A DNA stretch of 54,506 nucleotides from contig CAVFRF010000064.1 in assembly GCA_963624975.1 (NCBI GenBank), forward strand, positions 1 through 54,506, given 5' to 3'. The translations under genes were made by a program, and so were the position numbers. Shown here one piece after another: positions 32,010-33,091 of this stretch (the first letter of the stretch is position 1; each line of letters begins with the position of its first letter). The notes beneath the pieces are model-generated. The model was not told the DNA's origin. It ran no database searches and saw nothing but the letters and a program-made list of their open reading frames with translations. The DNA is from Bacteroidaceae bacterium. GTDB taxonomy: Bacteria > Actinomycetota > Coriobacteriia > Coriobacteriales > CADBOM01.

Positions 32010-32330
32010 ATGGAGTACAGCTTTCAAATTGGACTTCTCGACAACGATATCCCTGCAAAAGCTCTCATGCTCATCAAACGCACCACGGGAATTTCGTTTG
32101 CAGAAGTCAAACAGAAAACTGCTATGGGAGAGCCATTTTTCTCATGCAGCCTGAGCGATGACAAAAGGCTGCAGACAATAGTCAACCTATACAAATCTCT
32201 TGAAGCTCAAAACGTTCAAGCACAGCTCTACGATACCGGCAAGCCGGAAACGATTGACGTTTTGGAGAATACCCTTGCTTCACATATCGATACGTCAAAT
32301 GAGTTGGGCTTCGATGAACTCGAAATCTGA
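32010..32330 (+). CDS. Small acidic protein, paralog 1 of 3 (immunity-like)
   Basis: 106 aa with an AGGAG RBS. It shares the N-terminal pattern MEYsF.I...d.IPAkaLM.IKr.TgiSfaEVK with the next two ORFs. Confidence 0.7.
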   Translation: MEYSFQIGLLDNDIPAKALMLIKRTTGISFAEVKQKTAMGEPFFSCSLSDDKRLQTIVNLYKSLEAQNVQAQLYDTGKPETIDVLENTLASHIDTSNELGFDELEI

Positions 32331-32354
32331 AGTTCTCTACGAGTTGGAATCGCC

Positions 32355-32660
32355 ATGGAATACACATATGCGATAGTAGTATCGGTAACAGAGATGCCGG
32401 TCAGCGCACTGATGAAAGTGAAGAAACTCACCCACTTGTCGTTGGCCGATATCAAAGCGAGAGTCGCCTCGCGTTCGCCTCTCTACGAATGCAACTGTTC
32501 AGACGAATGTGGAATGGTATTACTTCTTGCCTTGTTCAACGCGCTCGACTCAGAGGGAATCGAACCTGTTTTCCTAGATTGCGGCGAATCAGCACCTATT
32601 CAGTATCTTCGAAATGCGCTCGAATCATATCGGAGAATCTCAGAGCAGGAAAACGATTAA
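32355..32660 (+). CDS. Small acidic protein, paralog 2 of 3
   Basis: 101 aa. MEYTYAIVVSVTEMPVSALMKVKKLTHLSLADIKARV aligns with paralogs 1 and 3. Confidence 0.7.
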   Translation: MEYTYAIVVSVTEMPVSALMKVKKLTHLSLADIKARVASRSPLYECNCSDECGMVLLLALFNALDSEGIEPVFLDCGESAPIQYLRNALESYRRISEQEND

Positions 32661-32689
32661 CGCAGTCCGAGATCATGAACAGGAGCAAC

Positions 32690-32770
32690 ATGGACGAACT
32701 TTGGTTTGGCATACAGTTGATGTCTGACGACATCCCCGCAAAGCGCATTCGCAAAATCAACGAATTCTAG
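32690..32770 (+). pseudogene. 26-codon truncated remnant of the same paralog family
   Basis: MDELWFGIQLMSDDIPAKRIRKINEF-stop matches the N-terminal consensus (compare MEYSFQIGLLDNDIPAKALMLIKR). It is preceded by AGGAG. Confidence 0.6.
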
Positions 32771-32779
32771 GAGCGCGCT

Positions 32780-33091
32780 ATGACTGATGCTACATACTCC
32801 ATCGCAATCGATGGCACCTCGATTCCCGCGAGTTCTCTCATGAAAATCAAGAAGCTCACCAATCTCACTTTGCCTGAAGTCAAAGGCAAAATACAGTCGC
32901 ATGAAGCACTCGTAACATGCACATGCATCGATGACGATGGGCTTTCTCTTATCAAAAGACTGTACGACGAACTCGAAACGGACGGCATCGATTGCCAGAT
33001 CTATCGTCGCGGGCAACCGGAACCGTACGAACTCTTCGAAAACCTGCTGGAAACGAACCGTCAGATCCACGAGGAGGAATATCCCTACTAG
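32780..33091 (+). CDS. Small acidic protein, paralog 3 of 3
   Basis: 103 aa with an AGGAG RBS. MTDATYSIAIDGTSIPASSLMKIKKLTNLTLPEVKGKI aligns with paralogs 1 and 2. Confidence 0.7.
   Translation: MTDATYSIAIDGTSIPASSLMKIKKLTNLTLPEVKGKIQSHEALVTCTCIDDDGLSLIKRLYDELETDGIDCQIYRRGQPEPYELFENLLETNRQIHEEEYPY

Follow-up and report, generated by a model that had tools for sequence, protein, structure and literature searches.

Orphan immunity arrays are already well known. In Vibrio cholerae, tandem type VI secretion system (T6SS) immunity genes occur without effectors, each nearest to a pair from another strain, and the 3′ ends of effector genes remain after displacement or deletion (Kirchberger et al. 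2017, PMC5361080). Gut Bacteroidales carry acquired interbacterial defence (AID) clusters, which are horizontally acquired immunity arrays in toxin-less genomes and are proposed to give protection against the toxins of other species (Ross et al. 2019, bioRxiv 10.1101/471110). Strings of esaG (DUF600) genes act against EsaD, a type VII secretion system (T7SS) nuclease, in Staphylococcus aureus and other firmicutes (Garrett et al. 2022, PMC9484751). For toxins with a Tox-GHH nuclease domain, Imm-SUKH is recorded as an immunity partner (Zhang et al. 2012, PMC3482391). Here we describe an islet of three small tandem genes and one short open reading frame (ORF) at positions 32010 to 33091 of contig CAVFRF010000064.1 (assembly GCA_963624975.1), all 54,506 nt of which were analysed and are called the window below. 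The genome is deposited as Bacteroidaceae bacterium and is placed by GTDB in the Coriobacteriales (CADBOM01). From the sequence comparisons described here we consider it likely that the islet is an orphan immunity-gene array, in which a known strategy is carried out with a new protein family.

The islet resembles the V. cholerae arrays in its polyphyletic copies and in its toxin 3′ stub. It differs from them in lying in a Gram-positive actinobacterium without a T6SS, with no secretion-system or toxin locus attached, and in its components, since the relevant Tox-GHH toxins ride on DUF4417 and LXG platforms and the immunity family is a different one. With the AID clusters it shares a gut bacterium as host, an acquired immunity array and a genome without the toxin. 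However, those clusters are directed against T6SS effectors and are carried by mobile elements, some of them with a recombinase, whereas the islet has three genes, no recombinase, a repeat at one edge that looks like a miniature inverted-repeat transposable element (MITE), and a Gram-positive toxin platform. The esaG strings are alike in being Gram-positive, tandem, non-identical immunity genes directed against a polymorphic nuclease linked to type VII secretion, and both systems are shaped by recombination and deletion between neighbours. The T7SS locus houses the esaG strings, whose evolution is put down to recombination of tandem paralogs, whereas the copies in the islet have separate origins, belong to another protein family and fold, and sit in a genome without the cognate toxin. 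The predicted role of the new family, neutralising a GHH nuclease toxin of the HNH/EndoVII fold, is that of Imm-SUKH; unlike Imm-SUKH, the family has no SUKH or SMI1_KNR4 match, and its modelled fold resembles ClpS and the C-terminal domain (CTD) of ribosomal protein L7/L12. What is new is the immunity family itself, its fold among nuclease inhibitors and its strict pairing with one GHH clade, together with an orphan array in a gut actinobacterium that includes a clean immunity/toxin chimera.

The genes of the islet, and the two parts of the short ORF, are as follows.

32010..32330, + strand: paralog 1 (par1), 106 aa, isoelectric point (pI) 4.43, with GGAG 9 nt before the ATG
32355..32660, + strand: paralog 2 (par2), 101 aa, pI 4.68
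32690..32770, + strand: short ORF of 26 codons between par2 and par3
32690..32743, + strand: first part of the short ORF, a truncated immunity N-terminus of 18 codons, MDELWFGIQLMSDDIPAK, most like the homolog P0015, with the junction within codons 16-18
32744..32770, + strand: second part of the short ORF, the fossil 3′ end of a Tox-GHH gene, RIRKINEF-stop, assigned by identity to toxin C-termini
32780..33091, + strand: paralog 3 (par3), 103 aa, pI 4.53

The three ORFs of 106, 101 and 103 aa and the 26-codon ORF lie exactly where an initial annotation of the window had placed them, and its description of the three as acidic paralogs was borne out. In pairwise BLASTP comparisons, par1 is 29% identical to par2 (E 5e-19) and 35% identical to par3 (E 3e-19), while par2 and par3 are 37.5% identical (E 1e-25); the paralogy is well beyond chance. 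All three proteins are acidic (pI 4.4-4.7), and a plausible ribosome-binding site is present at each of the three intact genes.

To collect relatives, we used a profile of the three paralogs in a full scan with a hidden Markov model (HMM) over 1.84 billion representative proteins (E <= 1e-3). This returned 165 clusters (at 50% identity) in metagenomes, nearly all of 100-115 aa. A word-indexed homolog search was far less sensitive, with one match for a single protein and eight for an alignment; alignments of the family contain no conserved stretch of 7-10 residues. All six stand-alone homologs examined (P0153, P0091, P0002, P0005, P0004 and P0015) lie 8-13 nt downstream of a gene encoding a Tox-GHH protein (PF15636) of 179-191 aa. 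In 4/4 homolog contigs that are long enough, the toxin gene is overlapped by a DUF4417 gene in front of it; those of P0029 and P0040 are too short to show gene neighbours. In a reciprocal search, an alignment of the six Tox-GHH toxins was compared with one genome per prokaryotic species (GTDB), which gave 35 loci. A member of the family lies directly downstream of the toxin, on the same strand, in 35/35, 34 of them at E <= 1.5e-13. The initial annotation had called the islet an orphan immunity-like cluster and had set the position of homologs downstream of toxin genes beforehand as the test; the six homologs and the 35 toxin-found loci both answer it in favour of that reading.

The toxin of this clade occurs in more than one form. 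It is a protein of ~180 aa behind DUF4417 in 15 of the 35 loci, so that the proposed link between the islet and DUF4417 cassettes holds, mainly as one of gene neighbourhood (these 15 loci and the four homolog contigs). In ~17 of the 35 the toxin domain forms the C-terminus of ORFs of 260-680 aa (length stop to stop) from Bacillus, Listeria, Virgibacillus, Lachnospiraceae and Chryseobacterium, among other sources. Seven of these large proteins were scanned; four carry LXG (L059, L064, L066, L077) and one PT-TG (L065). [quoted passage not shown] Because the same pair is found with DUF4417, LXG and PT-TG, toxin and immunity protein move as a unit between delivery platforms, a behaviour that characterises systems of polymorphic toxins (Zhang et al. 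2012, PMC3482391). We conclude that, on both platforms, one Tox-GHH clade has this family as its obligate downstream partner.

Other properties of the family fit an immunity role. In a comparison of six pairs, identity is 50-74% between the toxins and 20-35% between their immunity proteins, and a toxin pI of ~10.2 (10.1-10.3) stands against 4.4-4.7 for the immunity proteins. Two fusions were found: P0065 joins a Tox-GHH fragment to the family domain, and P0008 joins the family domain to GAD-like/T6SS_Tdi1_C, in an array with Imm33, SUKH, Tdi1 and DUF6985 genes (a polyimmunity locus). It is the fusions, the faster divergence of the immunity protein and the complementary pI values that agree with such a role. 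The P0008 locus is also the only place where SUKH genes appear, as neighbours; neither the three paralogs nor 130 aligned family members match SUKH, SMI1_KNR4 or another Imm family.

The islet's own genome, which is 98% complete, contains no PF15636 match at E <= 1 and, at E <= 10, nothing that matches the profile made for this toxin; as a positive control, the same profile recovers the toxin in two control genomes. The earlier statement that no toxin gene is present is upheld for the genome, and of the three paralogs only par3 keeps a toxin stub upstream, of 8 codons. The genome encodes four DUF4417 genes, two of them in the window, and the toxins downstream of these are of other kinds. One of them, the 164-aa protein at 45663..46157, had been put forward for a test of cross-protection; the cognate toxin is instead Tox-GHH. 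What the locus presents, then, is an orphan array of three intact tandem copies and a chimera, with no cognate toxin in the genome. The family is single-copy in 11 of 15 toxin-bearing genomes; three of the others carry two copies and the last carries three, in each case on different contigs and never in tandem. A tandem trio without a toxin is unusual by this measure, given that 11/15 toxin-bearing genomes hold a single copy and none a tandem.

Each paralog has its closest toxin-linked relative elsewhere. The closest relative of par1 is P0002 (45% identity), directly behind a Tox-GHH gene; that of par2 is P0004 (47%), behind DUF4417 and Tox-GHH; and the closest toxin-linked relative of par3 is P0005 (44%), likewise behind DUF4417 and Tox-GHH. 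In a maximum-likelihood tree, par2 and P0004 form a clade with a support of 97 in the Shimodaira-Hasegawa-like approximate likelihood ratio test (SH-aLRT). A single clade of the three paralogs is rejected by the approximately unbiased (AU) test (p = 0.019, delta lnL 65.6). Since monophyly is rejected and each copy is nearer to a foreign toxin-linked gene, the paralogs are a collection rather than the product of local duplication.

The short ORF bears on how the toxins were lost. It had been taken for a decayed fourth copy, and this is correct for its first 18 codons, which are a family N-terminus; the remaining eight codons and the stop come from a Tox-GHH gene, of which they are the 3′ end. 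In other words, the ORF reads MDELWFGIQLMSDDIPAK followed by RIRKINEF-stop. It is 48% identical to P0015 over 25 aa (E 3e-6) and matches the family HMM at E 2.7e-4. The GHH toxins of L017 and L030 likewise end in RIRKINEF (...LPGRRIRKINEF-stop). At the DNA level, the stub matches L017 at 26/30 bases, the four differences falling at synonymous third positions, and it gives a tblastn match at E 0.003. When the 150 nt upstream of par3 were aligned with six toxin 3′ ends, five of the six gave z 5.4-11.5, and 0/200 shuffles reached the score. The stop of the stub is followed by TAGGAG and the usual 9-nt spacer before the par3 ATG. The same comparison upstream of par1 and par2 revealed no toxin relic, with alignment scores no better than those of shuffles. 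A weak resemblance to a toxin peptide at 31862..31975 was likewise dropped, as its alignment was no better than shuffles.

A second strain (L028) carries the stub as well. The chimera would be explained most simply by a single deletion that began at codon 19 in a fourth immunity gene and stopped ~8 codons short of the end of a toxin gene once located before par3. The junction pairs P-A-K on the immunity side with P-G-K/R on the toxin side, and this may represent microhomology. An independent orphan case, in a genome from the same taxonomic order (L049, G386:C8, positions 5267-6192), has a single family gene, of 104 aa, after a Tox-GHH 3′ stub of ~27 codons that reads ...EHHEGWHGGNYRKSVPGKRIRRLNEF-stop. 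The chimera and the G386 stub both match the picture of sequential displacement drawn for V. cholerae immunity arrays (PMC5361080). The G386 orphan gene lies between the genes for a type I restriction-modification methylase and methionyl-tRNA synthetase.

On the explanation that we favour, each small, acidic, cytoplasmic protein would be the cognate neutraliser of nuclease toxins from a single Tox-GHH (HNH/EndoVII) clade, which occur either as a leader-tagged protein of ~180 aa behind DUF4417 or as the C-terminal domain of LXG and PT-TG toxins. The acidic immunity protein (pI ~4.5) would bind the basic nuclease (pI ~10.2) 1:1 and block its DNA-binding or active surface. We infer the physical binding, the neutralisation of toxin variants and the intercellular nature of the threat. 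Because the genome has no such toxin, the genes would shield the cell from the GHH nucleases of others. Possible sources are gut Firmicutes with LXG/T7SS toxins, other Coriobacteriia with DUF4417 cassettes (such as L050, L051 and L054), or incoming mobile elements. The array would have been built from separately acquired toxin-immunity modules, with the toxin genes deleted afterwards.

The same biochemistry could serve another role. The genes might be orphan antitoxins, with an anti-addiction or anti-defence function, directed against an intracellular DUF4417-GHH module of mobile elements or defence islands. Thoeris genes (ThsA/ThsB) adjoin DUF4417-GHH-immunity cassettes in L012, L013 and L029, the DUF4417 cassettes of this genome lie behind XRE-ImmA/IrrE switches on small islands, and the stand-alone toxin of ~180 aa has no recognised secretion domain. 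DUF4417 is, in addition, enriched in phages (10.1101/2025.10.10.680097). Nevertheless, the same toxin domain and immunity family occur on LXG and PT-TG proteins, phage and plasmid records contain no family member (tblastn, two queries), and viral contigs gave no match with either an immunity-protein or a toxin query. We regard this role as unlikely, although of the alternatives it is the one that survives best. As to the Thoeris genes themselves (ThsB_TIR and ThsA_Macro), they directly adjoin DUF4417/Tox-GHH/immunity cassettes at L012 2890-4547, L013 4924-6581 and L029 23-1057, that is, on three contigs from at least two organisms, which suggests residence in defence islands.

It is less probable still that the islet is the decaying rest of lost toxin-immunity cassettes, a set of neutral relics whose ORFs are idle. 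That the toxin genes are lost and the fourth copy truncated would be expected of such relics, and between strains the chimera shows two changes, both non-synonymous. Against this, the three full-length ORFs keep their ribosome-binding sites and both near-invariant positions of the family, L65 and N88 (par3 numbering). The arrangement is also kept in the second strain, where a metagenomic contig (L028, 97% nt identity) has the par2 tail, the chimera, par3 and the methyltransferase gene in the same order. The par2 tail has no non-synonymous change between the strains. The ENA assembly accessions behind L028 and the toxin-bearing L016-L020 are numbered close together, and a single study might have produced them. 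The par3 ortholog of the second strain (P0001) is 92% identical at the aa level; nine synonymous and nine non-synonymous differences give a ratio of non-synonymous to synonymous polymorphism (pN/pS) of 0.27, which suggests purifying selection on par3. Finally, one copy is usual where the toxin is present (the 11 of 15 genomes above), so that a tandem trio without a toxin is not the default state. Compared with L028 300-611, the strain differences in par3 cluster in its second half (~codons 60-103), with flanks of 97-99% identity. Recombination could be the cause, or a binding surface that is diversifying locally.

Several observations count against the orphan-array interpretation. The selection estimate for par3 comes from only those nine and nine differences. 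The family does decay: besides the chimera in the islet, a copy in G001, a genome of the same genus, has three stop codons, which also speaks for neutral relics. The C-terminal half of P0050 lacks family similarity, as a frameshift would give. The nearest toxin-linked relatives of the paralogs are only 44-47% identical to them. The ORF list shows no recombinase or mobility gene in or beside the islet. A search for an empty site in a relative found none; the same-genus genome is syntenic only to the right of the islet.

The fold of the family was approached by modelling. An AlphaFold2 model of par3, from an alignment of 130 sequences, has a predicted local distance difference test score (pLDDT) of 82.9 and a predicted template modelling score (pTM) of 0.71, with the order beta-alpha-alpha-beta-alpha-beta-beta-alpha. 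The top Foldseek matches in the PDB are ClpS and L7/L12 CTD, at modest E-values (0.011-0.04) and template modelling (TM) scores of 0.56-0.69 (target-normalised); a viral structure library gave the same two fold kinds. The par3 fold, as modelled, is thus of the ClpS/L7-L12-CTD-like alpha/beta kind. Among immunity proteins, Tsi7, which acts on the GHH2-type Tse7, is a beta-propeller.

Given this fold, and weak L7/L12 sequence matches (E ~1), one could read the islet as a small housekeeping adaptor like ClpS or L12 that was duplicated locally in tandem and has nothing to do with toxins, but this is highly improbable and effectively refuted by the neighbourhood and tree results, since monophyly of the three copies is rejected, homologs are strictly toxin-adjacent, 130 members include no Ribosomal_L12 or ClpS Pfam match, the family occurs in just 3/401 genomes of the phylum and the GC content of the islet is foreign to the backbone.

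The initial annotation had also noted an L7/L12-CTD-like pattern shared with the zinc-ribbon protein encoded at 46154..46504. At the level of the predicted fold the likeness stands. An AlphaFold2 model of 46154..46504 (four sequences; pLDDT 80.5) shows an N-terminal ribbon and then beta-alpha-alpha-beta-alpha-beta, and its top folds are L7/L12 CTD (1ctf, TM 0.80, target-normalised) and ClpS. It does not stand at the level of sequence or profile, where no homology between the paralogs and 46154..46504 was detectable (BLASTP E 0.57; hhalign 0.3% and 0.5%). In a PDB sequence search both profiles gave weak matches to L7/L12 (E 0.4-1.2, the paralog family at ~1), and Pfam gave no Ribosomal_L12 or ClpS match for the three paralogs at E <= 1 or for the 130 members at E <= 0.01. 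The models indicate, then, a common fold class. The zinc-ribbon protein occupies the same cassette slot as members of the family (DUF4417, leader-tagged toxin, small protein), has the same beta-alpha-alpha-beta-alpha-beta core as the paralogs, and ends, as they do, in an E-Y-P-Y-like tail. It differs from them in its extra N-terminal zinc ribbon, in lacking the C-terminal hairpin and helix, and in its partner, which is a different, non-GHH toxin.

The family is rare and matches no described one. For the three paralogs, scans against Pfam, NCBIfam, PHROGs and PADLOC returned only noise, and no Pfam family is common to the 130 aligned members. Family members occur in 3/61 relatives, and in this comparison only the present genome has three copies. 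A subgroup (P0083, P0090, P0102, P0120, P0122 and P0144) has an additional C-terminal domain of ~70 aa, of unknown kind, with the pattern ...YLW..E...W.V......Y.I.N..T......ED.DLNN.VAAMMIMQG...; a gene of this subgroup (L032 4655-5206) comes after a DUF2357 gene and not after a GHH toxin.

Two features lie to the left of par1.

31676..31909, no strand assigned: MITE-like foldback that forms the islet's left edge, with arms at 31701-31726 and 31857-31882
31925..31954, + strand: promoter-like site 5′ of par1, TTGAAA-18-TATCGT, from a consensus scan alone (9/12 positions)

The foldback is 234 nt long, and its inverted repeat of 26 nt is 96% complementary. It has 57 BLAST matches at ~20 places in its own 2-Mb genome, typically as paired inverted arms of ~50 nt that lie ~180 nt apart (e.g. 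C66:9611-9842, C48:693-921, C48:3172-3400, C37:9619-9848 and C100:24266-24491), and thus looks like a MITE family. Neither the repeat nor the islet as a whole has a match in Rfam. The GC content of the islet is ~46%, compared with ~62-66% on both flanks, and its right edge meets the 3′ end of a convergent methyltransferase gene. A mobile element or recombinase of the kind that marks the recombinase-associated AID (rAID) type is absent, the MITE-like repeat being confined to the left edge. The site is a synteny breakpoint relative to the same-genus genome. In that genome, L027 (G001:C9:9000-23000), at ~40% GC, is syntenic with window positions 33144-36992, at ~64% GC, and the methyltransferases share 74-76% identity as proteins and 68% as DNA; this GC gap is very large for one genus-level group, G001 being labelled as the same genus.

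The DUF4417-linked GHH toxins begin with MSKPxxGLFxGTxGE (L009, L012, L016, L017, L029), and a motif like G-x-x-x-G-T-S/T-G is common to the remaining DUF4417-linked toxins in this genome. In LXG and PT-TG proteins the match does not start until residue 21-22 of the stand-alone form, so that the leader seems to be peculiar to the DUF4417 platform. A similar leader is seen in small toxins after DUF4417 at window positions 3540-4040 and 45663-46157, and in L022 (2093-2434) and L023 (1838-2305). A toxin-domain piece of another sort occurs in Litchfieldia sinesaloumensis (L065 4360-4668), where a free-standing GHH toxin-domain fragment of 103 aa lies downstream of a PT-TG/Tox-GHH toxin and its immunity gene; it represents an orphan toxin-tip cassette of the kind known from Rhs and contact-dependent inhibition (CDI) loci.

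Retention of the orphan antidotes may, we propose tentatively, mean that the small leader-tagged toxins linked to DUF4417 act in trans, between cells or genetic elements. DUF4417 cassettes would in that case be a previously undescribed system by which Gram-positive gut bacteria deploy toxins, drawing on the same toxin-immunity pool as the LXG toxins of the T7SS. The idea is doubtful as it stands, and four observations lead to it: the orphan antidotes seem to be under purifying selection; the genome has four DUF4417 cassettes and no GHH toxin; ~20 N-terminal residues of the toxin are left uncovered in the matches of LXG type; and another cassette encodes a second, sequence-unrelated immunity protein that is L7/L12-CTD-like. 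This second protein, if the models are right, would suggest that one scaffold is favoured for immunity or that the two proteins share a very ancient ancestor.

With 165 clusters and a reciprocal test in which every one of the 35 loci paired toxin and family member, the family can be named as the predicted immunity partner of one Tox-GHH clade. DUF4417 cassettes, for which no description was found in the literature searched, gain independent evidence as a polymorphic-toxin platform, because the same toxin-immunity pair rides on LXG and on DUF4417. For the organism, the islet would extend the stockpiling of orphan immunity genes to gut actinobacteria of the Coriobacteriia-like kind, at a locus that keeps a fossil of the toxin loss.

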